Below are positions 1,388 to 21,807 of a stretch of 32,980 bases of DNA, in pieces. Both the position numbers and the translations under genes were made by a program. How positions within the stretch are numbered: position 1 is the stretch's first letter; the number at the start of each line of letters is the position of its first letter. The notes under the pieces are model-generated. The model saw only the letters and a list, made by a program, of their open reading frames with translations, had not been told where the DNA came from and ran no database searches. This stretch comes from Kiritimatiellia bacterium (GTDB lineage Bacteria; Verrucomicrobiota; Kiritimatiellia; CAIVKH01): NCBI GenBank assembly GCA_049451655.1, contig JBMTVS010000003.1, forward strand, positions 1-32,980, in the 5' to 3' direction.

Positions 1388-2836
1388 TCAGGTTCCGCCT
1401 GGCGTGATTTGCATCTGCTCGCGGGCTTTGCGCGCAAGTCGCTCTTCGAATAGTTTGCCGCCCGGGGTCAGTTGAGCCGGGCGAAAAGCAGGCTGCTGAT
1501 AGACTTGGTAGACCACCCGCACGGGGGCGATTTCGAGCGCTACATCCAGCAGTCCGAGTGCGCGCTCTTCGTTACCTTCTTCTGCGTGAAGTAGCGCTGC
1601 ATCCAGCACGGGTTGCGGCCACGCGGGATCAACGGTTATGGCTTGTTGGAGGCGATAAAGTGCGCTGTCGCGATCGTTGGCTATCACCTCCAGGATAGCG
1701 AGTTCGCGGTAGGCGCGAGCATCATCGGGCGCGGTGCGGATACAGGTTTCGAACTGGCGACGAGCATCATCTGCACGACCCATTCGCTGATAAACCAGAC
1801 CGATGTTAAACTTGGGATCCTGCGCTTTCGGTTCCGCTTGCAGCGCGGCTTCAAAATTTTCGAGCGCCTTTTGCGTTTGTCCGGCATACAGGTGTGCCAC
1901 GCCTAGATCATTCAACAACTCGCCAAATTCGGTAGCGGAAGTAAGCGCGGCCTCGAAAAAGCTGATGGCTTTCTGATAGCGGCGCAAAACCAGCAGAAGG
2001 CGTCCGGCCTGCTGGTTGGCGTAGGACATTTGCGGATATAACTCAAGCGCCTCATAATAATGCGCCAAAGCATCTTCGAGCGCGCCCTTGGTCGTGTCAG
2101 CATCTGCTTCCCGCACCAGAAACATGACCCTCGACATGGCATCCTGCGGATCGAGTTTTTCGGTTTTTCCGAAGGGCAATAATCCATCGAAATCCCGCCA
2201 GGACTTTCTGTTCATCCCGAACATGTCGAGAATCGAGGGCATCGAGGATTGGCCAACGCTGGCCGTGATGCTGCGTTGGCCGGACAGGACGCGACGCCAA
2301 TCCTGCCGAATACTCTCTTCCGGCGAGGGTGCCAGCACCGCCTGCAGGTCGGGTGGAACGGCTTTCGATGCATCCGCTGCAGGGGGCGGTAAAGGGATGA
2401 TCTCCTCATTGCTGAGCATGAACTGTGCACGGGTATAGGGCGTGAAAATCGGGGATAAATCGCTTCGCCGTTTTGCTGAAGCAATAGCATCCTCGACCGG
2501 TTCTGACGCGGGCTTGTCCGCCTCGACGGACGGGGACATAGCTTGATGCGGCTTGCTCAAAAGGTCCCCGGGTTGAATGTCCAACATGATGGGAGAGCTA
2601 ATCACGGCGTTAGGCTTTATTGGTTTATCCGGATTAACGGATAAACTGGAGTCGCCGCCTGAAGATGACTGCGCCACATCTTCTATGTCCCCGTTCCGCG
2701 TGAGCAGGTAGATGGTGATTGTGGCGATGACTACGACCAGTACCAAAGATAACAGTTTTTTGGTGTATCCCTTTGTGGTGGAATCGGTTCTGATAACTGC
2801 TGCCTGACGGATTGGTGGGCGACGGGACGGGGACAT
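1388..2836 (-). CDS. Membrane-anchored TPR-repeat protein
   Basis: N-terminal TM segment (LLSLVLVVVIATITIYLL), low-complexity linker, multiple C-terminal TPRs (LLNDLGVAHLYAGQ...A; FNIGLVYQRMG). Confidence 0.8.
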   Translation of the reverse strand: MSPSRRPPIRQAAVIRTDSTTKGYTKKLLSLVLVVVIATITIYLLTRNGDIEDVAQSSSGGDSSLSVNPDKPIKPNAVISSPIMLDIQPGDLLSKPHQAMSPSVEADKPASEPVEDAIASAKRRSDLSPIFTPYTRAQFMLSNEEIIPLPPPAADASKAVPPDLQAVLAPSPEESIRQDWRRVLSGQRSITASVGQSSMPSILDMFGMNRKSWRDFDGLLPFGKTEKLDPQDAMSRVMFLVREADADTTKGALEDALAHYYEALELYPQMSYANQQAGRLLLVLRRYQKAISFFEAALTSATEFGELLNDLGVAHLYAGQTQKALENFEAALQAEPKAQDPKFNIGLVYQRMGRADDARRQFETCIRTAPDDARAYRELAILEVIANDRDSALYRLQQAITVDPAWPQPVLDAALLHAEEGNEERALGLLDVALEIAPVRVVYQVYQQPAFRPAQLTPGGKLFEERLARKAREQMQITPGGT

Positions 2837-3247
2837 AGACGTAACCTAGCGCAGGCCGATCAGCTCCAGTTGGACTTGCAGTCGTTCGGACGAGCCTCGC
2901 CGGGATGGGGACACAGAAATAGTGACCACCCGTAAAGGAGGTTGTGCGGTGGCGCATGCCTCAAGAAAACCGGCAAGGGGGGCAGATTCCACATCTTCGA
3001 GACGCACGTCGTAATGCTCCAGCACGCGACCATCGATTTCGGTGCTTGCCCGCGTCTGGATGTCGGGCTGAGCTCCGGGCAGGTGCGCCCGCAGCATATC
3101 CGCCAGATTGGGCGCGCCTTCAGGCGCACTGGCCAATGCACGGGCGATGGCGGTTTGTCGTGTATGCTCACCGGCCTTCAGTTCCTGCAATGTATTCCAT
3201 TGCGCACGGCGATTTTCGATTTGCCGCCGTTTATCGGCTATGTCCCC
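2532..3247. repeat. Cluster of five GGGGACAYAG motifs
   Basis: 2532-2541(+), 2683-2692(-), 2829-2838(+), 2907-2916(+, GGGGACACAG), 3238-3247(-). Confidence 0.85.
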
Positions 3248-3334
3248 GCACGAACGCGCCGTAATCAGCAAGGCAGCTGCGGTCATAGCTGTTGCCATGT
3301 AAACCGGCCATGATGAGGCGAGCCTCCCTTTCAT
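2846..3334 (-). CDS. Type II secretion GspM-like protein
   Basis: N-terminal TM, coiled segment and ferredoxin-like C-terminus (VRLEDV...LAGFL...LRVVTISVSP); ATGA overlap with the upstream gspL-like gene; position after gspK-L. Confidence 0.55.
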   Translation of the reverse strand: MKGRLASSWPVYMATAMTAAALLITARSCGDIADKRRQIENRRAQWNTLQELKAGEHTRQTAIARALASAPEGAPNLADMLRAHLPGAQPDIQTRASTEIDGRVLEHYDVRLEDVESAPLAGFLEACATAQPPLRVVTISVSPSRRGSSERLQVQLELIGLR

Positions 3335-4740
3335 GGAGCGGCCTCCCCTGTAACCGTGAAAAGAAAACGCCCATCTTCATCGACCCCGCCGGGATCAACC
3401 GCGGATGTCCATTGCTCCTGCTTCAACAATGCGACCAGATGATCGGCCTCGACTGCGCTGGCGGCCCGGCCGCGCAGCGATACCCGCTTGGGCCCGACCG
3501 ACATGGATTCCAGTTCAACCTCCCGCACGTGGGCCAAGCGCAACAACTGATAGAACAATGGATGAGCGCCCTGACCCAACCACATCGAGATGATTTCACT
3601 CGAATCCTGCGCCTGCTTAACATGTTGCTGCGCCACAAACTCCTCCTGGCCGCGCGGGACCGATGGCAGGCCGGTAATTTCGCGCGCGGTTTGCTGCACC
3701 AGCTCCTGCCATTGCCGGTGCGTGGAGTTAACCAGCCAGCTTGATACCGTCGATGCTAGCAACAAAGCGATTGCACTCGCGGTAACCCAGGCCGCGGCGT
3801 GCCGGATTTGCCGCTGCACCAGACGCCTTAGGTTCGGATGCGTGGCTTTACCCGAACGCAAGTTGCCGCTCCATTCATCGCCAACCAATGCCGATGCGGC
3901 GAGAGATCGAACCAGTCCGGTTTCAGGATGCGGACAAATACTCCATGCGTCCGGCTTTATATCGAGAGCTACACGCAGCGAGTCGGCATGTTCACGGGCT
4001 AGAGCACCAGCGACCAGAAAGCGGGGTTTTTCCATTCCGGGCTCGCGCGCTATACCGGCAAGAAAGGGCCGTAACCGGGCCATCAGTTTGCTGCGGGCTG
4101 TTTCACTACCGTCCCAAACCAGCCGGGCGCTAAAGGTCGATAGAGGTGCAGCATCCCGGCCCGCAACTGCCACCACGCGATCACGCCCCAGGTATAGTGC
4201 GACATGAGGTCCAGTCGCATGAACGTCCTCCCCCTCCGTGATGGTCATCCGCCAGAGCAACAGCGCTTCTTGCTCCATCCATTCCGGATCCAGTGACATG
4301 ACGCGCAGTTCTTGCAACGTAGCTTCAAGCCGCTCGTCCGGCACCGCCACTGCAACGGCCCGGGCACCGGTGCTGCCGGGTCGCCGGGTGAGGTTTACAA
4401 ATGCGCAAGCGCATCGTTCCACGGGCACCGGCAGCTCCACGTCGAGCCGTGAAGGCAGTACGGAACGTGCTTTGGACAATGAGGAAAAAGGCACTTCCAG
4501 CGAACGCATGAAACTGTCACGCGTCAACACCATCGCGGAGAGCAAAGCCTTGCCCTCTCGCTGTTCACGGGCAATCGTTTCGGCCAGCGACGGCCACGAT
4601 GCATCGGTGGCGGGATCAATGTCGCGGCCCAACACGTCAAACGCGATTCGCCCGCGCCGCCGAATTGCCCGCGCCACGGTAATCCGGCCACCACTCATTT
4701 CAACGCCGTAGGCCGCGCCCACCTGGATACGTTGGATCAT
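3331..4740 (-). CDS. Type II secretion GspL/PilM-N-like protein
   Basis: Actin-like cytoplasmic domain (YGVEMSGGRITVA; RSLEVPFSS...ELPVP), one TM, periplasmic PilN-like tail (ELESMSVGPKRVSLRG); 1-nt TGATG overlap with gspK. Confidence 0.65.
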   Translation of the reverse strand: MIQRIQVGAAYGVEMSGGRITVARAIRRRGRIAFDVLGRDIDPATDASWPSLAETIAREQREGKALLSAMVLTRDSFMRSLEVPFSSLSKARSVLPSRLDVELPVPVERCACAFVNLTRRPGSTGARAVAVAVPDERLEATLQELRVMSLDPEWMEQEALLLWRMTITEGEDVHATGPHVALYLGRDRVVAVAGRDAAPLSTFSARLVWDGSETARSKLMARLRPFLAGIAREPGMEKPRFLVAGALAREHADSLRVALDIKPDAWSICPHPETGLVRSLAASALVGDEWSGNLRSGKATHPNLRRLVQRQIRHAAAWVTASAIALLLASTVSSWLVNSTHRQWQELVQQTAREITGLPSVPRGQEEFVAQQHVKQAQDSSEIISMWLGQGAHPLFYQLLRLAHVREVELESMSVGPKRVSLRGRAASAVEADHLVALLKQEQWTSAVDPGGVDEDGRFLFTVTGEAAP

Positions 4741-5993
4741 CAGTAACTGGCCCTCACGATGTGCACCTCGCCCTCATCGGAGCGGCGGGCGACCACTTCG
4801 ATGCGCTCGGATCGCCCATCGCGATAAGCGGCGGATTGAATCAAAAACCACTCGCTGCGCATGGCGAGATAAGGAGCAAGGCGGGCATATTGAATCTCGC
4901 CAAGATCATGTGCGATGAAATCGAGACGGCTGATCGGTCCCTCGCGCCGGCGCGCGACAATACTTTCGACCACTGGTTCGCCGCCCAGTCCGATCAATCC
5001 CAGCAAGGCATCGGGCGAGGCGGTGTTGACGTTCAGCGGAATGACGCGGTCGCGCGGCGCGGGAATGATGGTGACGGCATCTACAAGTTCGCCGGCGAAC
5101 ATCCGGAGCCGGGATCGTGAAAGATCCCGTTCGAACATATCGGCATCCCACCCTTCGACCGCGAACAACTCATCGAAACCATAAAGTATCCGCCCGGCGG
5201 TTTGATAGGCGGGTTCCCGCTTCGCGTAATGATTGTTTTCGTACGTGCCTTCCCGGTCCGAATCGATCCAGTCTCGCAGAGCATCCACCTGCAAGCCTGG
5301 CGTAAAAATGCCGCAGGCATTCATGATGACGCGTAGCGCGTCATTAGGGCGAAGGCTTTCACCGGTCACCTCAACAGCGAGGTTGTTCATGTCGAACTTG
5401 GCCGTCATGTCTTCTACCCGCAGGATACGTTCGATACCGGACGGATCCGTGGATTCGCGCGGTTGCGCCCAGTCTTCGCTCCCGTGATCAACGGTCAGGT
5501 CGTCGTCATCGGCCAACATCTGGAGTGCAAATCGAGCCTCGTCCAGTGCGGCTAAACGTAACTGCTCACGATGCATCATCCGCGATGCACCTGCCTGGGA
5601 GGCACGAGCGCTGGTTATTACGTGAACCGAAAGCGTGGAAAGAATTCCCATCAAAACAAGAGCCATGACCAGGATGCTACCGCTCTGATTTCCTGGTCGG
5701 CTTTCATCCTCGGCATAAATACGTGCCTTCTGCCGGTTGGAACCATGACGACGCTGCCAAGTGGCCGAACGCCTGGTCCGTAATTGCTCCGGCAGGATGA
5801 AGAAAAGATATTGCGCTAGTAAAAGGAGTCCGCCCGCGCCCAAATAGACCGCAGAAATACGAAGAAAACGACCCTGTTCATGTGCCATGCGAGCGAGCGC
5901 CAACAAGCCGAACAATGCTGCGATGGCTACACAAATAAGCCCAAGGACCAACAAGAGGATATTTATTCTGCGTCTATATTTACGAAACGACAT
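4740..5993 (-). CDS. gspK: Type II secretion minor pseudopilin GspK with a long N-terminal extension
   Basis: QSG/SILVMALVLMGILSTL prepilin helix; DHGSEDWA, EDMTAKFDMNNL, DALRDWIDSD, LNVNTASPDAL (HhH). Start placed at ATG 5993 because the TTG at 6044 lies in the putative -35 box. Confidence 0.85.
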   Translation of the reverse strand: MSFRKYRRRINILLLVLGLICVAIAALFGLLALARMAHEQGRFLRISAVYLGAGGLLLLAQYLFFILPEQLRTRRSATWQRRHGSNRQKARIYAEDESRPGNQSGSILVMALVLMGILSTLSVHVITSARASQAGASRMMHREQLRLAALDEARFALQMLADDDDLTVDHGSEDWAQPRESTDPSGIERILRVEDMTAKFDMNNLAVEVTGESLRPNDALRVIMNACGIFTPGLQVDALRDWIDSDREGTYENNHYAKREPAYQTAGRILYGFDELFAVEGWDADMFERDLSRSRLRMFAGELVDAVTIIPAPRDRVIPLNVNTASPDALLGLIGLGGEPVVESIVARRREGPISRLDFIAHDLGEIQYARLAPYLAMRSEWFLIQSAAYRDGRSERIEVVARRSDEGEVHIVRASY

Positions 5994-6015
5994 ATGGAAC
6001 TGAATGATTGATCGG

Positions 6016-6044
6016 ATTATGCCCCACGCATTTTTGTTGGCCAA
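6016..6044 (-). promoter_or_regulatory. Putative sigma70 promoter for the gspK-L-M operon
   Basis: Minus strand TTGGCC-N17-CATAAT. Confidence 0.55.
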
Positions 6045-6058
6045 TCGTTTTTAATCCG

Positions 6059-6088
6059 TTGCGCGTGGTCACGGGCTCACCGCATACT
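6059..6088 (+). promoter_or_regulatory. Putative promoter for pdxB (leaderless spacing)
   Basis: TTGCGC-N18-CATACT, 6 nt before ATG 6095. Confidence 0.45.
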
Positions 6089-6094
6089 ATCACC

Positions 6095-7258
6095 ATGATC
6101 GGTACGCAATCATCATCGCGTTCATTAAATATCCTGTGCGCCACCAGTGTGGCGGCCGGCGAGGAGGCATTCAGCTCGCTGGGAAACGTTACCATGATGC
6201 CCGAGTCGGAAATCCGGGCCGGGGCATTGCGTGATGTTGATGTGTTGATAACGCGCTCGAAGGTAAAGGTGAACGATGAGTTGCTTCGCGGCAGTAATCT
6301 CCAATTTTACGGCACCGCGACCGCCGGATCAGACCATGTGGATGAGGCCGCGTTGGCCGCGCGGGGAATTACCTGGAGCGAGGCTGCGGGTTGTAATGCC
6401 CGAAGTGTTGCCGAATACGTGATCGCCTCGCTGGCCCACCTCGGCAGGAAGCGAACTATATCGTGGCGTGATCGCACGCTTGCGATCATCGGGGCCGGGC
6501 ATGTTGGTTCATGTCTCGGTGTTTTAGCCAAGGCTCTGGGTTTGCGGGTTCGTTATTGTGACCCACCCTTGGCTGAGCGCACCGGCGAGACGCGTTATGA
6601 GTCCCTCGATGATGTATTAGCGGGTGCGGATCTTGTCAGCCTGCATGTGCCACTGACCGATTCAGGACGCCATGCTACCCGCGGCATGGTGAATCAGCGT
6701 TTCCTGAACATGATGAAGCCCGGAGCCATATTCATCAATAGTTCGCGCGGCGAGGTGGTGGCGGACGAGTCCGAATTAATCGCGCGTCGGGCCGACGGGC
6801 GATTCGGTGGATTGGTTCTTGATGTTTATCACCATGAACCAGCGATTATGCCGGAGTTGATCGAGGCGGCCGATCTGGCTACCCCGCACATTGCCGGATA
6901 CTCGCTGGATGGACGTCTGATGGGTACACAGATGATTTACGAGGCCGCCTGTCGCCATTTTGGGCGCGAGCCGCGTTGGCACATGTCGGCGGATGAAGCA
7001 CCCAGGTCGCTGGCCGTTCCCTTGTCTCATGCCGGGTCTGATGACCTGCTGCACTCGACTATTCTGGCCGCCTATGATCCCTGGACTGATCATACCGCTC
7101 TAAAAAAAGGCGTCACGAATCCGTCGAGTCTGGCGCAACATTTCAGCGCGCTGCGGGCCAATTATCCCGACCGTCGCTCGTTTACCCGGTTCGCCACGGA
7201 GCTTGAGCGCGAGCCCCGACTGGCCATCCTGGGGTTCGCGGGGCGGGAACGATCGTGA
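6095..7258 (+). CDS. pdxB: Erythronate-4-phosphate dehydrogenase
   Basis: ITRSKVKVNDELL, GTATAGSDHVD, GCNARSVAEYV, GAGHVG, LHVPLT, INSSRGEVV, TPHIAGYSLDG. Confidence 0.93.
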   Translation: MIGTQSSSRSLNILCATSVAAGEEAFSSLGNVTMMPESEIRAGALRDVDVLITRSKVKVNDELLRGSNLQFYGTATAGSDHVDEAALAARGITWSEAAGCNARSVAEYVIASLAHLGRKRTISWRDRTLAIIGAGHVGSCLGVLAKALGLRVRYCDPPLAERTGETRYESLDDVLAGADLVSLHVPLTDSGRHATRGMVNQRFLNMMKPGAIFINSSRGEVVADESELIARRADGRFGGLVLDVYHHEPAIMPELIEAADLATPHIAGYSLDGRLMGTQMIYEAACRHFGREPRWHMSADEAPRSLAVPLSHAGSDDLLHSTILAAYDPWTDHTALKKGVTNPSSLAQHFSALRANYPDRRSFTRFATELEREPRLAILGFAGRERS

Positions 7259-7301
7259 GCAGGGGGCGCCCGCCATCATCCCCAAGGGCCGTGTGCATGG
7301 T

Positions 7302-7333
7302 TTGACGCCGCTCCCTTCGCGGTGCTATATCTT
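7302..7333 (+). promoter_or_regulatory. Putative promoter for the ABC ATPase-GGDEF-pdxJ-nnr unit
   Basis: TTGACG (7302-7307) then TGCTATATCTT, ending 6 nt before ATG 7340. Confidence 0.5.
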
Positions 7334-7339
7334 CCCGCC

Positions 7340-8440
7340 ATGGCCAAAGTCATTTTAGAAAACGTACACAAGATCTATCCAGGCAACGTGGTCGCGGTAA
7401 AAGACGCCAATCTCGAGATCGAGGATCGCGAGTTCGTTGTGCTGGTGGGACCTTCCGGTTGCGGCAAGTCCACCACCTTGCGCATGGTGGCCGGTCTCGA
7501 GGAAATCTCGCAGGGCAGCATCTACATCGATGGTAAAAAGGTGAACGATGTTCCGCCGAAGGATCGTGATATCGCGATGGTTTTCCAGAATTATGCCCTC
7601 TACCCGCACATGTCGGTCTACAAGAATATGGCCTTCGGGTTGAAGCTGCGCGGCTTCCCCAAAGCGGAAATCGACCAGCGCGTGCGCGAGGCGGCGGAGA
7701 TTTTGAGCATCGAGGAGCTCCTCGATCGCAAGCCCAAGGCTCTCTCCGGCGGACAGCGCCAGCGCGTGGCGGTCGGCCGGGCCATCGTGCGCAAGCCCAA
7801 GGCCTTTCTGTTTGACGAGCCTTTGTCCAATCTCGATGCGAAAATGCGCGTACAGATGCGCATGGAGATAAGCAAGTTACACACCCGGCTTTCCTCCACC
7901 ATGATTTATGTGACCCACGACCAGGTCGAAGCCATGACCATGGGTGATCGCATCGTCGTCATGAAGGACGGTTTGATTCAACAAGTCGCCGAGCCGCTCG
8001 AACTTTACGACCGCCCGGCGAATCAGTTCGTCGCCGGCTTCATTGGCAGTCCGCCCATGAACTTTTTTCGAGGCAAGCTTGAAAAAAGAACCGGTGGGAT
8101 ATGGTTTGTGGCCGGCGGTATAGCGCTGCGTCTGGACGATCTTCACGCAAGCCGTCTGGCCGATCTGGCTGGAAGTGAAATCGTATTCGGCATACGGCCC
8201 GAGGATATTGCCGACACCTTGTACGTGACCCAACCAAACCCTGACCAGCAACTAAAGGCACAAGTGGAGGTGGTTGAACCTATGGGAGCAGAGATTTATT
8301 TGTATCTCGGCACGCACGGTCAATCCTTCATCGCACGCGTTGGTGCCGCCCAATCCGTCTCGCCCAATCAGGAACTCACCCTGGTCATGAACATGAAAAA
8401 GGCGCACTTTTTTGATCCAACCAGCGGGAGCGCCCGCTAA
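7340..8440 (+). CDS. MalK/UgpC/MsmX-type sugar ABC transporter ATP-binding protein
   Basis: Walker A GPSGCGKST, VFQNYALYPHM, LSGGQRQRVA, FDEPLSNLDAK, YVTHDQVEAM, C-terminal TOBE (VEVVEPMG). Confidence 0.95.
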   Translation: MAKVILENVHKIYPGNVVAVKDANLEIEDREFVVLVGPSGCGKSTTLRMVAGLEEISQGSIYIDGKKVNDVPPKDRDIAMVFQNYALYPHMSVYKNMAFGLKLRGFPKAEIDQRVREAAEILSIEELLDRKPKALSGGQRQRVAVGRAIVRKPKAFLFDEPLSNLDAKMRVQMRMEISKLHTRLSSTMIYVTHDQVEAMTMGDRIVVMKDGLIQQVAEPLELYDRPANQFVAGFIGSPPMNFFRGKLEKRTGGIWFVAGGIALRLDDLHASRLADLAGSEIVFGIRPEDIADTLYVTQPNPDQQLKAQVEVVEPMGAEIYLYLGTHGQSFIARVGAAQSVSPNQELTLVMNMKKAHFFDPTSGSAR

Positions 8441-8442
8441 CC

Positions 8443-9570: not shown

Positions 9571-10307
9571 GCAATGCCGGCATCAAGCTGGGGGTAAACG
9601 TGGATCATGTTGCCACGGTCCGGCAGGCACGCCGCGCCGCCTATCCCAATCCGCTGGAGGCGGCCCGGTACTGCGAGGCGGCGGGGGCTTACGGGATTAC
9701 CATTCATTTACGCGAGGATCGTCGCCATATTCAGGATCACGATGTTTGGGCGCTGAAGGCGTGGGGTAAACTGCCATTGAACCTCGAGATGGGAAACAAC
9801 CCTGAAATTGTGGATATCGCACTCGAGGTGAAGCCTGAAGAAGTCTGTTTGGTCCCGGAGAAACGACAGGAACTTACCACGGAAGGCGGACTTGATGTCG
9901 CCGGACAGTTTGATGTTTTGCGCGATACGGTCGACCGGTTGAAAGCAGCCGGCGCAATGGTCAGCATGTTCATAGACCCTGATCCGGTTCAGATCGAAGC
10001 TTCTGCGAAAATCGGCGCGCCGTTTATTGAGTTGCACACGGGCGCTTTTTGCGATCATGGCCAGCAAGAGGAAATGCAGCGCCTGATCGAGGGTGCCCGC
10101 ATGGCGCATCAGCTCGGCTTGCGGGTAAATGCCGGCCATGGCATCAACCTGGATAATATCCACGCTATACTACGCATACCGCATCTCGAAGTGCTCAACA
10201 TCGGGCACAGCATCGTTGCCCGCGCCGTGATGATCGGCATGGAGGCGGCTACCCGGGAAATGATGGACGCCATGTCCGCCTACCGGGGAGGCGAGCCCGC
10301 GCCGTGA
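9567..10307 (+). CDS. pdxJ: Pyridoxine 5'-phosphate synthase
   Basis: LGVNVDHVATVRQAR, ITIHLREDRRHIQD, LVPEKRQELTTEGGLDV, IELHTG, NAGHG, LNIGHSIVARA. Confidence 0.98.
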   Translation: MSNAGIKLGVNVDHVATVRQARRAAYPNPLEAARYCEAAGAYGITIHLREDRRHIQDHDVWALKAWGKLPLNLEMGNNPEIVDIALEVKPEEVCLVPEKRQELTTEGGLDVAGQFDVLRDTVDRLKAAGAMVSMFIDPDPVQIEASAKIGAPFIELHTGAFCDHGQQEEMQRLIEGARMAHQLGLRVNAGHGINLDNIHAILRIPHLEVLNIGHSIVARAVMIGMEAATREMMDAMSAYRGGEPAP

Positions 10308-12868: not shown

Positions 12869-12911
12869 CGAGCGGAAGGGGACTGTAGCGGTTCCCTCCG
12901 CTCGTTTTTTT
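12869..12911 (+). terminator. Intrinsic terminator after the lipoprotein gene, between it and the convergent mfd
   Basis: CGAGCGGA...TCCGCTCG stem followed by T7. Confidence 0.85.
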
Positions 12912-12914
12912 GGG

Positions 12915-15900
12915 TCAAATTCGCGCGACCAATTTGAACAGATTTTTCAAACGATTCGTGGTGGCGGCTTGGGGTAGTCGTGGAAATTTACCGTCTTTCA
13001 TGATGAAGTCGCGACGACGGGTCATGATGACCTTTTCATCCTGAATCTCGATTTTCTGAATTCCTTTTTCGGCGGCGGCTATCTTGATGCGGGACAGCAG
13101 GAGTAGGCGCTGCGCCGGCTCGGGCAACACACCAAAGCGATCGCGCAACTCGGCCTCCAGTTCATCTACCAGGTTCAGCCGGTTGAGCGAAGCAATGCGC
13201 CGATAGAGCCGCACCCGCAACGTTTCATCCTCGATGAAGGTGATGGGTATGGCTGCCGCGTGATCCGCGATTTCCTCTTCCGCGCCGAGAGAAAGAAAAT
13301 CGACCGTTACCTCGACGTCAATCACCGGTTCTTCCGGATCACCCTTCATGCGCGCAACCGTGCGCTGTAAAAGCTGGCAATAGAGATCGAACCCGATGGC
13401 CGCAATATGACCACTTTGCTCGGACCCCAGAATGTTTCCGGCGCCGCGTATCTCGAGGTCGCGCATGGCCAGTTTGAATCCGGAGCCGAGGCTGGAGTAG
13501 CGTTTGATGGCGCCGATACGTTGCCGCGCCATAAAGAATAATTTTCCGTGCTTGGGCAACAACAGATAAGCGAAGGCTTTTCGCTTGTACCTTCCGACCC
13601 GTCCGCGCAACTGGTACAGCTCGGCAAGACCGAAGCGATCGGCACGATCGATGATGATGGTGTTGACATTGGGTATATTGAGACCGCTCTCGATAATCGT
13701 GGTACAAAGCAGGACATCGAAATCACCGTGACTAAATCCGCGCATCACCCGCGAAAGCTCGCCCTCCTTCATTTGCCCGTGCGCGACCCGTATGCGCGCT
13801 TCCGGCACCAGATTGGCTAACTTGAGGTGGAGTTGCTCAATAGTCCCCACGCGGTTGTGCAAAAAGTAGACCTGCCCCTCGCGGTTGATTTCGCGAAGGA
13901 TCGCCTCGCGAATGGTCTCGTCCTTGTGCTCGGTGATGATGGTCTCGATCGGTAACCGTTCAACCGGCGCGGTTTCGATGATGCTCAAATCCTTGGCCCC
14001 GGTAAGGCTCATGTACAGCGTCCGCGGAATCGGCGTGGCGGTCATGGTCAACACATCGACGAGCTGACGCATCCGCTTGAGGCGCTCCTTGTGCTTCACG
14101 CCGAAGCGCTGCTCCTCGTCTATAATCACCAGGCCGAGGTCGCGAAATCTCACATCGTTTTGCACCAGGCGGTGGGTACCGATGACGATGTCGACCGCGC
14201 CGTCCGCGAGGCGTTCGAGCACGTCTTGTTGCTCCGCCTTGCTCTTGAAGCGACTGAGCGACTCGATACGTACCGGAAACGCGGCCATGCGCTCGCTGAA
14301 AGAATCGTAATGTTGCTGGGCCAGCACCGTGGTGGGCACCAGCACCGCGACCTGCTTCCCGTCCATCACCGCCTTAAAGGAGGCACGCATCGCGACTTCG
14401 GTTTTACCATAGCCGACATCGCCACAAATCAGCCTGTCCATCGGTCGCGCGCTTTCCATGTCGTTCTTCACATCCGAGATGGCGCGGGCTTGATCGGGCG
14501 TTTCGTCGAATGGAAACGTGTTTTCAAATTCCAGTTGCCAGTGAGTGTCCTTGCTGTAGGCATGGCCCGGTTTTGCGTCCCGCTCCGCCTGGGTTTCGAG
14601 CAACATCGCCGCCATATCCTCGACCGCGCGCTCGGCAGCAATCTTTTCCTTGGTCCAGCGCTTGCCTCCGATGGCGTGCAGCTCGGGTCGCCGCTTACCC
14701 ACGCCGATATAGCGACTGAGTAAGTGGGTTTGACCAACCGGCAAATAGATTTTTGCCTGGCCGGCATACTCGATGGTGAGGACTTCGCGCGACTGACCGT
14801 TAACCTCGATCTCAAACAAGCCACGATAAATCCCAATCCCGTGATCGGTGTGTACAACGAAGTCGCCGGGCTGAATATCGGTCCAGGACTGCAGACGCTC
14901 ACCAGCCTGACTGCGGGCGCGCTCGCGCTTGGCCGATCGCTCGAAGCGTCCCGCTTGTTCGCGGCGCATGCCGTAGAAGTCGAGATCGCTCACGTAGAGG
15001 CAGTTAGTCTCCTCGCAATGAAAACTTTCAGAGAGCACGCCTTCGTGGAAACGAATCAAGGCATGCGCTGGTAACTCATCACGATAGGCTTCGGCAAATC
15101 TTTCCATGCCGCCCGGGCTGCTAAAAAAGAGAGTCACGCTCGATCCGGACTGCGCCTGCGCGACCAGATGGCGCAAAAATTGCAGGCGTTGCCCGGCGAT
15201 GACATCCAACGGAACCGGGCCACCGGGAGCGGCGGGTAAACCGTCAACATCTTTGGCATCAAGCGAGATGACGATTTCATGCTCGCACGGACTTAAAGCG
15301 AAGACCAGGTGTCCGGAACCCGGTATGGTATCCGGTCCAGGTAAGGTTTCCGGTGCCACTAATCCGCGCTCATGAAGCGATTCGAAATAGATGTCACGAT
15401 GATGTTCGATGCTTTCGCGATCGATCCAAAGCCAGAACGCATTGGATTCGACGAAATCAGCAAAGAAGTGCTGACCGGAAATATCCTCGGCGGCGGGCGG
15501 AAGTTCGGTGGCGAGGAGAATTTCGCGCGAGCGCTGCTCAACCGGATCGAACGACCGGATGGACTCAATGGTGTCACCAAAAAACTCGAGGCGCACCGGC
15601 CAGTCGAAACCGGGCGGCCATGCATCGAGAATTCCACCTCGCCAGGACGCCTGACCTGGTTGCAGTACTTCCGGCTCAAAAATATATCCAGAGGACTCGA
15701 GTTTCTCGAGCAAGGTTGACGGCTGGCATTCATCACCGACATTGAAGCTTGGCGTCTGCTCAAGCACGACATGTGGAGCTGACGTTGGTTGCATTAAAGC
15801 TTGGATACATGTAACCACGACCGGACGCGAGGTAAGCGCCTTCAACGCCAGCATTCGTTCGCCCATGGCGGAGGGTGAGCGATCCTCGGCTGAGGGAAAG

Positions 15901-16157
15901 CTATGGCAAACAGTCTGACTCCTAAAGTAATCCGCCAGTGTTTGCACGTCATTGACAACGCGTTCCATGGTGGTGGGGCCATCCGTAACGATAATCACCG
16001 TCGCGGATTCGCACAGCCTGGCAGCCGCCAGTCCCGCCGCCGCCATGCCGGGAACGGGCGTGATTTGGGCACAATACACCCCTCGCCGGTGGAAAATCTC
16101 CACCAGCGTTTCCGAGTCTTTTTTGCCAAGTATGGCTTGACCCTTAGGCGAGGGCAT
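12915..16157 (-). CDS. mfd: Transcription-repair coupling factor
   Basis: UvrB-homology region (RGGILDAWP...[16 protein letters not shown]), CarD/RID (VVHTDHGIG), [54 protein letters not shown]-terminus. Confidence 0.98.
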
Positions 16158-16229
16158 GACGGTAACTATACGCTATATTTTTGCCGGAACTACTTCCCGG
16201 TGAAAAACTTCCGGAACAGGGCGATATGA

Positions 16230-16643: not shown

Positions 16644-16669
16644 GGTGTGTCTCCTTGATCCGGCTTGAT

Positions 16670-17326
16670 TCAGGCCGCTTTGCGCTGTCGAGGAATGGTG
16701 GTTTCGGGTATACCGGAATATCCAGGCGGGCGGCTGACCGCTTCGGATTTTCTCCGTCGCATAAACGAGGAGAAGGTGACGAAGAACAGCCCGGTCTGGA
16801 AGAGACAGCGCAATCCGGTGGCCTCGGCGTCGCTAAGGGTAATACCGAGCTTATAGGGCACAGCCTCTTTGTTGCGCTTGCAGGAGAGCGCGAGGAAGAA
16901 GGTGTTGTGCTCCAGGTTGCGCTGAAATGCGATGAGGGTGTTGCCGCCGCCGGAGGCATGAAAGAGCCCGTTGCGGTCGCCGCCGACGCGCAGCGTTCGG
17001 CCCTCGAGCACGGTGAGCATCTCGGCGATGTCCATGAAGTTAAGCTTCACGGTAATCTTGTTGACCCAATCGAAGGTCGCGGGTGACACGCCACCGCCAT
17101 CACGGTTCGCGGTAGTCTTCTGGGCCGCCATCTCCATAAAGAAGCAGTTATAACGGTCGGCATCGTCGCGGTTCACCCGGGGTTCGAGGCGCAGCGCGGT
17201 GCCGGTGCCACGGTTATTCTGGTGGTAGAACGCGATGGAGCGTCCCTTGTAGTCGGTCACGGGCGGCGTTTCCATAATGGGTTCGTTGGTGATTTCGGCT
17301 GTATTTATGTTCGTATTAATTGTCAT
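16670..17326 (-). CDS. Putative Whirly-like ssDNA-binding protein
   Basis: SD-like AAGGAAG; motifs ALRLEP, FDWVNKITVKL, GLFH, FFLALS and ITLSDAEATGLRCLF are colinear with plant Whirly motifs (recognised by eye). Confidence 0.6.
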   Translation of the reverse strand: MTINTNINTAEITNEPIMETPPVTDYKGRSIAFYHQNNRGTGTALRLEPRVNRDDADRYNCFFMEMAAQKTTANRDGGGVSPATFDWVNKITVKLNFMDIAEMLTVLEGRTLRVGGDRNGLFHASGGGNTLIAFQRNLEHNTFFLALSCKRNKEAVPYKLGITLSDAEATGLRCLFQTGLFFVTFSSFMRRRKSEAVSRPPGYSGIPETTIPRQRKAA

Positions 17327-17382
17327 TGGGTTCTTCCTTTTTGATGTTTTTCGGTTGATTGATTTTCAAAAACCGTGAGTGA

Positions 17383-17466
17383 GACCGGATGGCCGGGGTT
17401 GACGCATGAGCAGACAACAAGAGATTGTCGCGTCGCACCCGGCCATCATGGTCCACCCGCGGGGTG
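17383..17466 (-). other. Long structured inverted-repeat element between ssb and the Whirly-like gene
   Basis: Nested pairings GACC/GGTC, GATGGCCGGG/CCCGGCCATC, GACGC/GCGTC and GACAA/TTGTC; adjacent small hairpin CACCC-GCG-GGGTG. Confidence 0.7.
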
Positions 17467-17472
17467 CAGGTT

Positions 17473-17883
17473 TTAGAACGGCATGTGGTCTCCGTCGTCG
17501 TCGTCCATTACGCCAGCGGCCACGGCCTCGGTGCCGGGGCTATCCTTGACGGGGCCGCGCTGAAGAAACTGCACGCGGTTCGCACGGACGCGGAGCTTCG
17601 AGCGCTTTTCGCCGCTGTCCGTGTTCCACTGGTCGAACTGGAGTCGGCCTTCCACCAGAACCGGCGAACCTTTCTTAAGATACTGGGCGCAGGTTTCGGC
17701 GATACGGCCCCAGACGACGATGTCGGCAAAGCAGGCACGCTCGACGAGCTTGCCGTCCTTGTCCTTGTAGTTGTCATTCACGGCCAGGCCGAGTTCCGAA
17801 ACGGCCTGTCCGCCCGGCGTCACGCGCTTTTCAGGATCGCGGGTCAGGTTTCCCATCAGGAATACTTGGTTCATGGAATTCAT
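17473..17883 (-). CDS. ssb: Single-stranded DNA-binding protein
   Basis: MNQVFLMGNLTRDPE, VVWGRIAE...YLKKGSPVLVEGRL, acidic tail ending DHMPF; SD AGGAG before ATG 17883. Confidence 0.96.
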   Translation of the reverse strand: MNSMNQVFLMGNLTRDPEKRVTPGGQAVSELGLAVNDNYKDKDGKLVERACFADIVVWGRIAETCAQYLKKGSPVLVEGRLQFDQWNTDSGEKRSKLRVRANRVQFLQRGPVKDSPGTEAVAAGVMDDDDGDHMPF

Positions 17884-18044
17884 GTTTTTTCTCCTTCTAT
17901 GTTGTTGGTTTTCGTTGTTATGAATGAGCATGTGCTCTATTTCATGATTCCAATTACCAACAGCATCGAGGCGTTCATTTTTGGAAAAATATTTTTCATA
18001 AACTCTCTAAGCTGTTGATATTCAACGAATAAAAATTTTCAAAA

Positions 18045-18875
18045 ATGTCCGAAAACGTGCAAACAACCACGCCGGATACCTGGCGCGCATGGAAGAAACA
18101 TTGTGCCGCGGAGCGATGCGGGGAGGCGGAGGCCGCGATGCTGCGCCGTTTCGGTTCGGCGCGATTCTCCTATTATGTGCAACGTTATGCTGACCGGGTG
18201 GGTCATCGGGGTGGAGCGCTTCGGGTGGCCGAGGCAGCGGATGGCTGGAACTTGCTCGAGTCGCATGTCCAGATTTCAAAAACCCGGCCAGGAAAACGCT
18301 ACAAGGATTGGTTGTTCGCCAGGGCGAAACGGGGCGGCCCGGATCATTTTCTTGCTCTGATGGAGAGCGGGGCCACGCTATTGATGCGCACGGTGGTAAG
18401 GATTTATTTGCGCAAGGAGCATCACGCGCGATTCATGGCCTCGCTACAGGCCCCGCGTGGTGGCACCGACGGCGAGGGGACATACACGCTGGAGGATCTA
18501 ATCCCGGATGCGAGCGCGCACCCGGCGGATGAAGTTTCGGAGCGGGAGTGGCGTGAATTGGCCATCCGGCATGCAACGGATTTTTTTGAGACGATGGAAT
18601 TCCGGGAAGTTGTGACGCTGTGGGCGCGTGGCCGGGGGATTAATCTGTGCGATCGCAGACTGTTAAATTGGGCCGGTTACAGCGAAAGCGCGCTCTATAA
18701 GGAATACCGGAAATTTCTGGAAAAGATGGGGTCGGTGATAAAAAAGTTTTACCCCGAGGAAAGTCCGGAAGCCCTTGTCAGAATGGGGGTTATGATTCAC
18801 GAAGAACTGGGTGTGATGTGCGAGAAAAAAATTTCCGTACAAAAAGGCGTACCTCGTTGCTTTAGGAAAGCATGA
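18045..18875 (+). CDS. Divergent sigma70-family (alternative sigma-like) protein
   Basis: Region-2-like ATLLMRTVVRIYLRKE; region-3.2-like SLQAPRGGTDGEGTYTLEDLIPD...PADEV; region-4-like REVVTLW...AGYSESALYKEYRKFLEKM. Confidence 0.55.
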   Translation: MSENVQTTTPDTWRAWKKHCAAERCGEAEAAMLRRFGSARFSYYVQRYADRVGHRGGALRVAEAADGWNLLESHVQISKTRPGKRYKDWLFARAKRGGPDHFLALMESGATLLMRTVVRIYLRKEHHARFMASLQAPRGGTDGEGTYTLEDLIPDASAHPADEVSEREWRELAIRHATDFFETMEFREVVTLWARGRGINLCDRRLLNWAGYSESALYKEYRKFLEKMGSVIKKFYPEESPEALVRMGVMIHEELGVMCEKKISVQKGVPRCFRKA

Positions 18876-19615
18876 AATTTCCATCCTACAATTTAACGCG
18901 TCATCCCGGGCGCGGCAGGGAACGGGAGAAGTTGGCCGCGTGGCTGGCGGAGCGCGAGCTGGACCAGCACCTGGGCGGCGATGAGCCGCCGGTGAAGGCA
19001 TCAAACATACTGCGGTATGAAATGCAAAAAGACCGCGCTACCTCTGTGCCATTCCAGGCTGGTGACATCGCGCTCTTTAAACCGGCGACGAATGAATCAA
19101 GGGCGTGGGGACCGGTATATGCCTTTTTACTGGAGCGGATCGCGGAAAAGGGTAGATGGCTCGCAGTCCCTTTTTCGCGTTATGCGATGCCGGCGGTACC
19201 GGGAGAATGGCGAACGAAGCTATCGGCGGATGCTCTGCAGGTACTTTGCATATGGAATGCGCGAGAAGTGGTAGAACGAAGGTTTCTGCCCGGAGCGGTC
19301 AAGCACCTGCCTGATGAGCAACGCGAGCGGATTCGCGGCGTGTATCGCGAGGTGTTCGGGTTTCGGGATAGTGCTACGACCGCGTCTTTCAGTGATGATT
19401 TTGGCCCGCCTCTTTTGCATCCGGTTGATCCGCGCTACGCATATCTTGATGAGGAGCGCGTAAGATTGGATGAACACACCGGAGAGGCGGAGGCGCTTTC
19501 AGAGGATGAATCCGACGAGGAGGGTCCGCTTGAAAATGGCTTTTCACCAATTGAAAAGTCGGAGTGGTTATTGGCGGCCGAGGGTCGCCCGAAGTACGGA
19601 AAACCGCCGGATTAG
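18872..19615 (+). CDS. Hypothetical cytoplasmic protein coupled to the sigma-like gene (possible PemK/SH3-like core)
   Basis: ATGA overlap; GDIALF...GPVYAFLL...WLAVPFS pattern; GPPLLHPVDPRY and an acidic tail; no TM. Confidence 0.65.
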   Translation: MKFPSYNLTRHPGRGREREKLAAWLAERELDQHLGGDEPPVKASNILRYEMQKDRATSVPFQAGDIALFKPATNESRAWGPVYAFLLERIAEKGRWLAVPFSRYAMPAVPGEWRTKLSADALQVLCIWNAREVVERRFLPGAVKHLPDEQRERIRGVYREVFGFRDSATTASFSDDFGPPLLHPVDPRYAYLDEERVRLDEHTGEAEALSEDESDEEGPLENGFSPIEKSEWLLAAEGRPKYGKPPD

Positions 19616-20835
19616 CGGGTGGCAACGCGAAGCTTGGTTACGGCATGGCGCAGCGCTTCGCGAAGCCGGGCGTAATCCTCGTCCGTGGTGAAGCGACTTG
19701 AGCTGATGCGGATCACGGCGGCTGGTTGAGGCTGGTCGAGGCCCATCGCGGCGAGCACATGTGAGGGTTCGTGGGCACCAGAGGCGCAGGCGCTTCCCGA
19801 GGAGCAGGCCACACCGGCCATGTCGAGCAAAGCCAGCAGCGGCTCGGTTTCGATACCGGGAAAAATGGCCAGCGTGGTGTTGGGTAGCCGGGGCTGGTTT
19901 TTACCGGCGATGATGGCATCAGGAAACATTTCCAGCAGCCAGTCCTCGAACCCGTCCCGGCGCGTGCGCATTTCATCCGCGCCACCGCCCTTCAACCATT
20001 CTGTTGCCTCTGCCGCAGCCGCCCCGAGCGAGACGATCGAGGGTACCGCCTCCGTTCCCGGACGCAGCCCGCCTTCCTGCTCTCCACCCAGCAATAGCGG
20101 TGAAAATCCGGCTGTATCGCGGATGAAAAGAGCTCCTATCCCCTTGATGGCGTGAAACTTGTGTCCGCAAATCGCCGCCGAGTCCACCCCGGCGCCAAGT
20201 GGGGACATAGCAGTAATTATCCCGTCCGGCAATCCGTGTCCGGATTCCGTGACAGCGGACATACCTTCTATGTCCCCGCCTTGAAAGGGGATTTTTCCGG
20301 CGGCTTGGACGGCGTCAGTGTGGAGCCAGGCCCCAACTTCGCGGGTCAGTTTAGCGACCTCGTGAACCGGGTAAACGACACCGGTTTCGTTGTTGGCCAG
20401 CATGAGACAGACCAGAGCGGTGCGTTCTGTGATGAGGGAGGCGAGCTGGTCGAGGTCGAGGGCGCCATCGCGGTTTACGGGCGCGATATTAATTGTATGT
20501 CCCTTCTTCTCCAGCCGCGCCCGCCAGCCCCACACGGCGGCGTGCTCGACGGCGGAAAAGACCACTTCTCTCCGCTCAGGCCGGGCGGCCAGGGCGGCGT
20601 GGATGGCCATGGCGTTGCTCTCGGTGCCCCCGCTGGTGAAAACCAACGACGAAGAAGGGACAGACCATAAACCGGCGACCTGCTCACGGGCTTTTTTTAC
20701 CGCTAAAGCTGGTGTCCGCGCCATGGCGTGTGGACTGGATGGATTGCCATAATGCTCCCTCATATAAGGGAGCATGGCATCTACCACCGACGGGGTTACC
20801 GCAGTGGTGGCGTTATTATCGAAATAACTTATCAA
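19612..20835 (-). CDS. iscS: Cysteine desulfurase (NifS/IscS group I)
   Basis: YFDNNATT, YGNPSS, FTSGGTES, ANNETG, HTDAVQA, GHKFH (PLP lysine), SSGSAC (catalytic Cys). Confidence 0.93.
   Translation of the reverse strand: MISYFDNNATTAVTPSVVDAMLPYMREHYGNPSSPHAMARTPALAVKKAREQVAGLWSVPSSSLVFTSGGTESNAMAIHAALAARPERREVVFSAVEHAAVWGWRARLEKKGHTINIAPVNRDGALDLDQLASLITERTALVCLMLANNETGVVYPVHEVAKLTREVGAWLHTDAVQAAGKIPFQGGDIEGMSAVTESGHGLPDGIITAMSPLGAGVDSAAICGHKFHAIKGIGALFIRDTAGFSPLLLGGEQEGGLRPGTEAVPSIVSLGAAAAEATEWLKGGGADEMRTRRDGFEDWLLEMFPDAIIAGKNQPRLPNTTLAIFPGIETEPLLALLDMAGVACSSGSACASGAHEPSHVLAAMGLDQPQPAAVIRISSSRFTTDEDYARLREALRHAVTKLRVATR
20201..20277. repeat. 77-bp segment with 10-bp terminal inverted repeats, in frame within the desulfurase gene
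   Basis: GGGGACATAG (20201-20210) and CTATGTCCCC (20268-20277). Confidence 0.8.
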
Positions 20836-20841
20836 ACGTAA

Positions 20842-21807
20842 TCAGGGTGCTGACGTTTCCTCGCCCGTAGTCTCAACGTCCACTTCTGTTTCAGCAGCGG
20901 AATCCTCCGTCCCGGGCGCGGCTTCCGGTTCGCTAATAGCTTCTTCCCCGTCTTGGACTTCCCCGGCGACTTGCTCCTCCGCGACGAGTTCCGCTTCGAC
21001 CTGGTCGGCATCGCTGATCATCTCGTCGATTTCGGCGTCGGTAGGGGGCGCAGCTTCTGTGTCCCCGTCCAACGTGGCGGCCATGGCGGCTAGACGTTCG
21101 ATGGTTTGTTGGATGAGAACTTTCTGCTCTTCCTTCGACCGCTCGGTGGCTTCGGCAATAGCTTCGCGTTCCTCGACCAGGGCCATCTCGCGGCTGGCAA
21201 TTTCAGCGGTTTTTTCGTCGAGCACGTTCCGCACCTCTTCGCGGATCTGGTCTCGCTCGCCACGCACTGCAGTCAACTGCTCCTCAAACGTCCGCGCCAC
21301 GGTTTCCTGCGCGGAGCGATTGGCTTGAAGCTCCTGGCTGATACTTTGCGTGAGCCGCGCGGTCTCTTCACGGGTCGCTGCCACTTCGCCGCGTACATTG
21401 TCCAAACCGGCCGCTTGTTGATCCGCGGCCTCGGATAATGCGGCAGCCGAATCTTTCATGCTGGTCTCGACCGCCGATAGCGAACTGGCGGCGGTATCCA
21501 CCTTTTTGCCTTGCTCGGCGATCAGGTAGGCCACGCCTACCGCGACCAACACCGCTAATGTGCAGGTCAAAATAACATACCGGCTCAAGATGCCCTGTCG
21601 CTTGATGGCCTTGTGCATCTGCGCGATGGCCCGCTCCTGGCGTTCGGCCTCGCGCTGGCGAATCTCGGTCAGCTTGCGAAGCTGCGAAACCGCTTCATTT
21701 AATAAATCCGCCGATACCTCTACCCGGCCTCCCTCCGGCTTGACCACTTCGGCCGCGGCTTCTTCAATACCTGTAGATTCCAAATTTTCGTTTTTTTCTT
21801 CGCTCAT
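20842..21807 (-). CDS. Single-pass membrane coiled-coil protein with acidic tail
   Basis: SD AAGGAG; TM YVILTCTLAVLVAVGVAYLI; long heptad-like helical region. Confidence 0.8.
   Translation of the reverse strand: MSEEKNENLESTGIEEAAAEVVKPEGGRVEVSADLLNEAVSQLRKLTEIRQREAERQERAIAQMHKAIKRQGILSRYVILTCTLAVLVAVGVAYLIAEQGKKVDTAASSLSAVETSMKDSAAALSEAADQQAAGLDNVRGEVAATREETARLTQSISQELQANRSAQETVARTFEEQLTAVRGERDQIREEVRNVLDEKTAEIASREMALVEEREAIAEATERSKEEQKVLIQQTIERLAAMAATLDGDTEAAPPTDAEIDEMISDADQVEAELVAEEQVAGEVQDGEEAISEPEAAPGTEDSAAETEVDVETTGEETSAP

Follow-up and report, generated by a model that had tools for sequence, protein, structure and literature searches.

A REP/REPIN-like repeat head very probably linked to RAYT-like transposases, and its same-length copies within conserved genes of a Kiritimatiellia bacterium

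The 10-base word GGGGACATAG is strongly over-represented in a 32,980-nt stretch of DNA from a Kiritimatiellia bacterium (contig JBMTVS010000003.1 of assembly GCA_049451655.1, positions 1 to 32,980; the whole stretch is hereafter called the window), and is very probably the conserved head, or terminal inverted repeat (TIR), of a small non-autonomous and transposase-linked family resembling repetitive extragenic palindromic sequences (REPs) and their hairpin doublets (REPINs), of the TIRYT/TIRtron kind with GGGGWSAS-type ends. The repeats would be recognised by a clade of ~290-aa Y1 (HUH) transposases of Verrucomicrobiota, Kiritimatiellae and Lentisphaerae which resemble REP-associated tyrosine transposases (RAYTs), and copies found inside genes at unchanged gene length may have been written there by a process tied to this enzyme. 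Taken as a whole, this explanation, comprising the identity of the repeat, its recognition by the clade and the enzyme-linked origin of the genic copies, is considered likely.

The genome holding the window (G000; 2,215,414 bases in 270 contigs, 58% G+C, the window being its contig C3) contains 125 exact copies of GGGGACATAG, making it the fourth commonest 10-mer after GC-rich simple words, against roughly 5 estimated from base composition; the over-representation is seen on both strands, and the reversed control word occurs once. Within the window, six exact copies stand against a mean of 0.03 expected and none of 100 dinucleotide shuffles reached six, while the degenerate form GGGGACAYAS was matched nine times (0.14 expected) and GGGGACA likewise nine times (3.56 expected, a ~2.5-fold excess). 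Rough home-made gene calls, consisting of 1766 coding-like stop-to-stop open reading frames (ORFs) scored by codon log-odds and covering 84% of the genome, hold 52 copies, 25 sense and 27 antisense, whereas shuffling of synonymous codons within them gave 3.57 +/- 1.6 (at most 7 in 100 shuffles). GGG makes up 14% of glycine codons and ATA 7% of isoleucine codons, GGG-GAC-ATA-G spells 19 of the 83 (23%) G-D-I-[ADEGV] peptides, and the tripeptides GDI and YVP are 1.3-1.5 times more frequent than expected from composition. Since the excess persists in both shuffles, it is real and goes beyond codon or peptide usage; a preliminary description of the word had named codon usage, to be judged by genome-wide counts against codon-shuffled nulls, as what might undo it, and this did not happen.

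Alignment of all copies extends the motif to approximately C-GGGGACATAG-[A/C][A/C/T]-G (C at -1 in 79 of 123, A or C at +10, any base but G at +11, G at +12), followed by a weaker T-rich stretch able to pair back on the head, and this extended form is alike in genic and non-coding copies. Two sub-families, GGGACATACAA (35 copies) and GGGACATAGAA (51), exist side by side, and 160 one-mismatch relatives of the word were counted, headed by AGGGACATAG (32), GGGGACATAC (28) and GGGGACACAG (24). Among 31 genomes, comprising G000 itself and others of its genus, family and class, only G000 and the same-genus G005 (79 copies) are enriched, that is two of the six members of the genus, the other 29 holding 0-10 copies (control word, 0-7 per strand).

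The link to a transposase is drawn from G005, in which three of the five genes with Y1_Tnp hits are flanked by the motif, with forward copies 100-280 nt upstream and reverse copies 200-340 nt downstream. The three encoded proteins are ~290 aa long with a mutual identity of 56-77%; proteins of this clade match Pfam Y1_Tnp (E 8e-10 and 4.5e-7) and NCBIfam REP_Tyr_transpos (53.5 and 45.3 bits, positions 11-146 of 146), and carry an HUH motif (HYH or HFH) and a Y-I-E-x-N-P tyrosine, the histidines of the former and the Y of Y-I-E-x-N being invariant in 13 clade sequences. An AlphaFold model built from these 13 sequences (pLDDT 74.9, the last ~70 residues unmodelled) has as its best match in the PDB 4ER8, a REP-associated tyrosine transposase bound to a REP hairpin (E 9.4e-7, TM 0.64 on the target), followed by the IS200, ISDra2 and IS608 transposases. 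Scanning one genome per species gave 34 clade loci, in records named Verrucomicrobiota/Verrucomicrobia, Kiritimatiellae, Lentisphaerae/Lentisphaerales or 'uncultured bacterium'. Repeats headed by GGGGACA were found at 19 of the 20 full-length clade loci belonging to named records of metagenome-assembled genomes, on both flanks in 13 and at similar distances, with a tail dialect particular to each genome (...TAG, ...CAG, ...GAGA, ...GGTAATT, ...GTGA). In the five genomes where it flanks clade genes, the dialect GGGGACAGAGA reaches 21, 159, 70, 20 and 74 copies (controls 0-2), and for GGGGACAGGTA the count is 13, in a genome with many copies of the gene; the flanks of other Y1 genes of the genus hold GGGGTCAG repeats. 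A search for RAYT transposases, suggested in the preliminary description, has therefore led to RAYT-like genes flanked by the inverted motif in G005 and by dialects of it across the clade.

Regular arrays of GGGGACAGAGA were also observed in other genomes (G033:C43:1011-1705 and G032:C19:38147-38272), one with five copies exactly 171 nt apart and others forming same-strand runs at 19-34 nt; none such is present in G000.

Context classes based on ORF context and flanking codon scores were assigned to the 125 copies and to 3000 random positions:

Non-coding: 64 copies (51%), random positions 9%
ORF edge: 26 copies (21%), random positions 17%
Internal to a coding-like ORF: 35 copies (28%), random positions 74%

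The family favours extragenic space five- to sixfold, as REPs do, and its genic share is still unusual. At an overall density of ~1 copy per 18 kb, 67 of the 125 copies lie no more than 300 nt from another one, where random placement would give 3.9 (maximum 14 in 500 trials). A preferred spacing of inverted pairs, which had been proposed as a check, was indeed found: of the 48 adjacent convergent pairs, 31 are separated by no more than 200 nt, and distances of 97-124 nt are the commonest. Sixteen doublets (~105 nt) have a common interior made up of two TTCCAAnnnTTGGAA blocks and a GGAAATCAAC box, the remainder having unrelated interiors or forming perfect hairpins of 41-50 nt. Folded as single-stranded DNA, four doublets, one in the window and three of the 16 with the shared interior, reached z values between -3.3 and -6.9, which none of 200 shuffles equalled; an Rfam scan of four doublets gave no match (E up to 1). 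The second arm, TATGTC, is a weak one, with T occupying +16 in 78% of non-coding copies. No target-site duplication is evident in the doublet flanks. These inverted doublets, the interior common to many of them and the flanking of RAYT-like genes support the third of the readings offered earlier, namely that the copies are ends of a family of REPs or miniature inverted-repeat transposable elements (MITEs).

When elements were located by their interior (70 anchors), 28 right and 31 left ends carried the motif with 0-1 mismatch, while other ends were at background level, with few intermediate and some clearly decayed. Active homogenisation of the ends was considered and no conclusion is drawn, as the pattern fits ordinary decay together with unrelated TTCCAA palindromes. 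The palindrome TTCCAAnnnTTGGAA itself has 55 exact copies in G000 and 144 with at most two mismatches (e.g., C97:535-590 and C26:15596). Of the 144, just 47 have a motif copy no more than 120 nt away, so that the palindrome also stands alone, as another repeat or binding site.

The window contains one such doublet, inserted in a gene:

19612..20835, reverse strand: host gene, class-V aminotransferase or cysteine-desulfurase-like (Aminotran_5, E 1.9e-62)
20201..20277, no strand assigned: REPIN-like hairpin doublet bounded by the inverted exact copies 20201 (forward) and 20268 (reverse)

Together with one further base the doublet makes up 78 nt, that is, an in-frame insertion of 26 aa, at which the Pfam match of the gene is split (residue 185); 12 of 12 relatives match the gene in two abutting pieces, and 11 of 11 orthologues, including that of G005, show a gap of exactly 26 aa opposite the insert. 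As single-stranded DNA the insert has a folding energy of -21 kcal/mol (z -4.5 and -5.8) that none of 200 shuffles equalled, and it is bridged without a gap by a contig from a run of another study. Judged from these alignments, the 20201/20268 pair is a clean in-frame repeat insertion. A second insertion, of 16 aa and with a solo copy, lies at C38:11236, and at C45:8985 a copy adjoins a 9-aa gap, a single orthologue covering the site.

Most genic copies that could be compared are of another kind. Codon-by-codon alignment with up to five congeners covered 21 of the 61 genic or edge copies, and 13 of these 21 sit at native positions without any gap, and are thus same-length replacements, among them the following:

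AMP-binding enzyme: TGDIA kept; GGC GAC ATC GCG in G005, GGG GAC ATA GCA in G000
MurA: Y-T-P in 5/5 congeners, Y-V-P (TAT GTC CCC) in G000
Glycosyltransferase, site 1: RRAGGY in congeners, RRGHSY in G000
Glycosyltransferase, site 2: FRYVPL in congeners, FIYVPL in G000
Glycosyltransferase, site 3: PGDAAAMT in congeners, SGDIEGMT in G000, a 20-nt stretch of which equals the hairpin form of the repeat
C14:15338: RGK in 5/5 congeners, RGH in G000
Asparagine synthase: GYIP in congeners, SYVP in G000
C205: FFP in 4/4 congeners, YVP in G000

These replacements often use rare codons (GGG, ATA), and several alter residues conserved in all congeners. At C14:15192 the motif is present in both G000 and G005, identical over GGGGACATAGAACG while neighbouring synonymous sites differ; none of the other 11 replacement sites with a G005 orthologue is shared with that genome. 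By our own reading of the alignments, several of the presumed ancestral sites were already motif-like at 6-8 of 10 positions and two at only 3-4. Insertion and replacement are ambiguous at C105:3702 and at the window copies 2532, 2683 and 2829. The preliminary description had held that confinement of the copies to longer conserved elements would favour a MITE over an uptake signal; some copies do belong to in-frame insertions, but most genic ones lie outside longer elements. In G032, which has another dialect (159 copies), a few of 19 inspected solitary copies are in long ORFs, numbers too small to generalise, and one copy falls within the native L-C-P-H-C motif of a GspE/PilB-like ATPase.

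As to mechanism, E. coli TnpA-REP and IS608 suggest by analogy that the transposase may bind and cut single-stranded DNA at the motif and mobilise doublets, and the same-length genic copies would be written by a process linked to it. One candidate is a short templated patch, with the abundant single-stranded copies of the repeat acting as its source through template switching or conversion; another is a motif-directed drive favouring near-cognate sites or alleles carrying the motif. The multi-base changes found at dissimilar sites and the patch that reproduces 20 nt of the hairpin form count in favour of a single templated event; an origin of the genic copies in a one-step templated patch is given a probability somewhat short of even. 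Local quasi-palindrome correction by template switch from a nearby inverted copy cannot make them, as 22 of the 35 genic copies have no inverted partner (at most two mismatches) within 300 nt. Simple copy-paste of a longer unit is disfavoured by the lack of both a master sequence and nearby templates; a master sequence carried into genes was also rejected, the extended sequences being diverse. More tentatively still, the repeat could also be a self-propagating short word, 10-20 nt of which are copied by a transposase-tied process over near-cognate chromosomal sites with length unchanged, either through patch synthesis templated by excised single-stranded repeats or through preferential transmission of DNA nicked at the motif; the rewriting of conserved codons in essential genes would be its outcome.

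A number of observations weigh against the assignment to a transposase-linked REP-like family. We know of no transposition reaction that yields same-length replacement, and the many partnerless genic copies count on the same side. No clade transposase gene flanked by GGGGACATAG was found in G000, a tblastn search with the G005 proteins leading to C185 only, where a homologue with 50-60% identity, truncated at both ends of the contig, has another dialect, GGGACAGTCAA, on its flanks; the canonical RAYT of C32 also lacks flanking GGGGACATAG, its flanks sharing inverted GGATGCAGAA(AT) words instead. The clade scores below the NCBIfam REP_Tyr_transpos cut-off (45-53 against 80 bits), and a sequence search of the clade against the PDB gave nothing significant. 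The repeat has no GTAG tag and its single unit is a weak palindrome only, nor is there a 'master' sequence, the commonest 18-mer having 3 copies, unlike in REPIN populations. Finally, contigs of four other runs (four studies) from near-identical strains show no presence/absence polymorphism at the motif sites that the listed contigs bridge (2079-2715, 2652-3714 and 19142-20592; contigs rather than reads, with 40 of 288 base differences listed), and thus offer no direct evidence of current mobility. With regard to the missing gene, the cognate copy may be unassembled (the 270 contigs include none under 2 kb) or lost from G000; our guess is that a gene of ~1 kb enclosed by repeats may have dropped from the bin.

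Contig C185 (L155:1-4012; 4,012 nt) carries the same ~55 nt at both ends with the RAYT-like gene split across them, and could represent either a small circular molecule or a repeat that was collapsed during assembly. The GGGACAGTCAA-type repeats flanking its gene comprise three forward copies upstream and two reverse copies downstream, and GGGACAG[AT]CAA has 18 copies across G000. The RAYT of C32 (C32:5629-6222; L015:1363-1956) has 198 aa, an HVH motif and a REP_Tyr_transpos score of 82.6 bits, above the cut-off.

The same-length genic copies are unlike products of transposition and look like the effects of uptake sequences. A DNA uptake sequence (DUS, or uptake signal sequence, USS), preferred by the competence machinery and spread by uptake and recombination through substitution, genes included, is nevertheless an unlikely explanation of the word. 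Uptake sequences occur about once per kb, against about once per 18 kb here, and over half of the present copies are clustered within 300 nt of one another. It is true that genic copies arose by substitution without change of length, recoding conserved peptides and changing some residues, that both strands are used, that inverted pairs occur and that a ComEC gene is present. The raised GDI and YVP frequencies can likewise be compared with the tripeptide effect in the available text of PMC2817400, and the genic share of 35-61 of 125 copies is close to the 653 of 1892 given there for what is presumably N. meningitidis. Yet ComEC is found in 5/5 congeners tested, motif-rich or motif-poor, which makes it uninformative on uptake, while two of six congeners are enriched; genes of a transposase clade spanning three phyla or classes have the motif or its dialects on their flanks, and the motif forms the termini of ~105-nt elements with a conserved interior. 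Low density, clustering, restriction to two congeners and co-variation with the transposase clade therefore disfavour an uptake signal as the cause, so that the DUS-like interpretation of the preliminary description fails as primary explanation, although the uptake-like behaviour that it implied inside genes is borne out by the same-length rewriting of codons. The only fragment of a ComEC (Competence family) gene found in G000, C123:550, itself holds a motif copy, read S-Y-V-P.

A site selected by the host, recognised by a nucleoid, segregation or recombination protein (Chi- or KOPS-like) or by a domesticated transposase and kept or created by selection, is less probable again. It would account for the excess on both strands and for the identity of G000 and G005 over GGGGACATAGAACG at C14:15192, but not one of the 11 other comparable sites is shared, copies are clustered instead of spaced, and changes of conserved residues in essential genes such as MurA are hard to see as locally adaptive. 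Nor is there polarity with respect to GC skew (51 copies on the locally G-rich strand, 42 on the C-rich strand and 32 in weak-skew regions), and the suggestion of a chromosome-organising site thus gains no support. An ordinary MITE of a DDE transposon (e.g., with Tn3-like GGGG ends), whose genic copies would be insertions trimmed by deletion, fits the terminal inverted repeats and the real in-frame insertions and is still quite improbable: the motif-flanked genes found encode Y1 HUH transposases, though no systematic search for motif-flanked DDE transposases was made, target-site duplications are not evident in the flanks, and each of the 13 same-length replacements, several of them in invariant motifs of essential genes, would need an exactly compensating deletion. 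Chance, or codon and peptide usage, can point to YVP and GDI being fairly common peptides, but is refuted by the shuffles (0.03 against 6 in the window, 3.57 against 52 within ORFs) and by the control word (1 against 125), and has practically no probability left.

The copies of the window, apart from those bounding the doublet, are as follows:

2532..2541, forward strand: exact copy, read A-M-S-P in ORF 1388-2836 (reverse strand), a TPR protein, in its poorly conserved N-terminal region
2683..2692, reverse strand: exact copy, read G-D-I-E in ORF 1388-2836 (reverse strand), directly past a predicted membrane helix
2829..2838, forward strand: exact copy, whose internal ATG (2836-2834, reverse strand) is the first possible start of ORF 1388-2836 (reverse strand), giving M-S-P
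2907..2916, forward strand: variant copy GGGGACACAG, read V-S-P in ORF 2846-3334 (reverse strand)
3238..3247, reverse strand: exact copy, read G-D-I-A in ORF 2846-3334 (reverse strand), 162 aa, no Pfam family
18476..18485, forward strand: variant copy GGGGACATAC, in ORF 18045-18875 (forward strand), no Pfam family
21057..21066, reverse strand: variant copy GGGGACACAG, in ORF 20842-21807 (reverse strand), no Pfam family
1388..3334, reverse strand: local cluster of two adjacent ORFs (TPR and 162-aa), downstream of a T2SS-K-like gene, with 5 of the 9 window copies

All positions and strands of the six exact copies and three variants given in the preliminary description were confirmed, as were the C preceding five of the six exact copies (20201, preceded by T, is the exception), the continuation of GGGGACA by YAS (9/9 in the window), the location of the copies within or overlapping coding sequences (all are in long ORFs) and the start codon supplied at 2836, no in-frame ATG, GTG or TTG lying between this ATG and the upstream stop three codons off.

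The stretch between 2532 and 2683 is native sequence, in which PIMLDIQPGDLLSK aligns with five orthologues, and the idea of the two copies as one inserted element is thereby false. The 2683 copy, at DIEDVAQ, stands opposite a 7-aa gap in two of five orthologues and a 2-aa gap in the other three. Against the sole orthologue found, that of G005, the 2907 copy is gap-free at low identity (SVSPS against QVSAA) and the 3238 copy is also gap-free (CGDIADKRRQ against VKAGDDRRQ), being of the replacement type on the basis of this single orthologue; an inserted element formed by the pair is doubtful, as it would span most of the 162-aa protein. No orthologues of the ORFs at 18476 and 21057 were found among the congener loci compared. 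Solo window copies fold no better than shuffles, with no local hairpin at 2683 (z 0.0) or 2829 (z 0.5).

At least three coding-like ORFs (window 2834-2836 on the reverse strand, and C9:19738 and C219:2051 in G000) have the ATG of the reverse-strand motif (CT-ATG-TCC-CC) as their earliest possible start and then begin M-S-P; three further ORFs (C14:12770, C105:3702 and C181:38) may also do so. Other genes of the window (3331-6044, 12915-16157 and 23121-25661 among their positions) include the T2SS-K-like gene with two unassigned neighbours, Mfd/TRCF, a topoisomerase I-type gene, PdxJ, a YjeF-type NAD(P)HX repair fusion, a GGDEF protein, a MalK-like ABC ATPase and a Ser/Thr kinase; ORFs without a Pfam family are 2846-3334, 3331-4740, 12003-12845, 16670-17326, 17425-18018, 18045-18875, 18872-19615 and 20842-21807. 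Sequence near-identical to window positions 1401-11400 was present in 20 public runs of 13 studies, from marine, estuary, aquatic and freshwater metagenomes.

The spread of REP-type elements is still unsettled, and REPs are treated as extragenic passengers, whereas here a probably transposase-linked repeat occupies rewritten native codons in conserved genes (MurA, the AMP-binding enzyme, asparagine synthase and others). If this rewriting depends on the transposase, a selfish element would shape protein sequence by conversion and not by insertion, and a concrete test system would be at hand; a self-propagating word, if true, would mean that REP-type elements can spread in a new way, comparable to uptake-sequence drive but powered by a transposase. 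Over-represented genic words are usually read as uptake sequences, and a mobile-element motif can leave the same signature.

Among known systems, the closest in description are the TIRYT genes and TIRtrons of Di Nocera et al. 2013 (PMC3733652), which, in the text available, are flanked at fairly constant distances by inverted TIRs sharing GGGGWSAS, the TIR families being moderately abundant and found in dimers and clusters. RAYT-like Y1 genes with inverted GGGGWSAS-type repeats are found here as well, the GGGGACAG dialects fitting 8/8 positions and the G000/G005 dialect GGGGACAT 7/8; the present clade, likened to TIRYT by that description, comes from uncultured bacteria of the PVC group (Planctomycetes, Verrucomicrobia and Chlamydiae) and has ~290 aa with a poorly modelled C-terminal third, and the accessible part of that paper does not speak of codons being overwritten at unchanged length. 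The same source reports intragenic REPs as most numerous in Opitutus terrae (Verrucomicrobia), and the in-frame insertions of ~20-30-aa dimers in varied proteins which it describes, as with Rickettsia palindromic elements, are matched by 20201-20277; intragenic REPs are treated there, as far as its available text goes, as insertions, whereas 13 of 21 genic copies here add no residues. REPIN-RAYT systems, for which the available portion of Bertels & Rainey 2011 (PMC3116915) gives REPs in extragenic space, 1053 copies of three 16-mers and doublets of 71 and 110 bp, share with the present family an over-represented short word, inverted hairpin doublets (97-124 nt here) and a repeat-flanked Y1 gene, but in the latter conservation extends over no more than 10-14 nt, no 18-mer exceeds 3 copies and 28-49% of copies are in coding-like ORFs. 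The GGGGACATAG head does not have the form of a 20-40-nt imperfect palindrome with a GTAG (or CGTC) tag, which defines a REP unit. With E. coli TnpA-REP (PDB 4ER8) the clade shares the structural match and the HUH and tyrosine motifs, at 16% identity, with ~125 more residues and without a GTAG-tagged REP.

In comparison with DUS/USS, the word has a ~20-fold lower density, is clustered, is confined to two of six congeners and is linked to a transposase clade; what it shares with them, as presented in the parts of Findlay & Redfield 2009 (PMC2817400) at hand, is a short word on both strands with accumulation in genes by substitution, codon and tripeptide bias and inverted pairs, uptake sequences there numbering 1471, 765 and 1892 copies and raising the tripeptides that they encode. 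HIP1 of cyanobacteria (GCGATCGC; PMC5861425) is likewise a hyper-abundant word whose excess is unexplained by composition, but it is a perfect 8-nt palindrome, methyltransferase-linked and far denser, with no transposase link reported in the text available. The general kind of element is already known, as shown by REP/REPIN-RAYT systems, TIRtrons with GGGGWSAS and, according to the portion of PMC3733652 available, intragenic REPs in a verrucomicrobium; as far as our searches of the literature go, supplements aside, what is new is a PVC clade with its dialects and the same-length overwriting of conserved codons.

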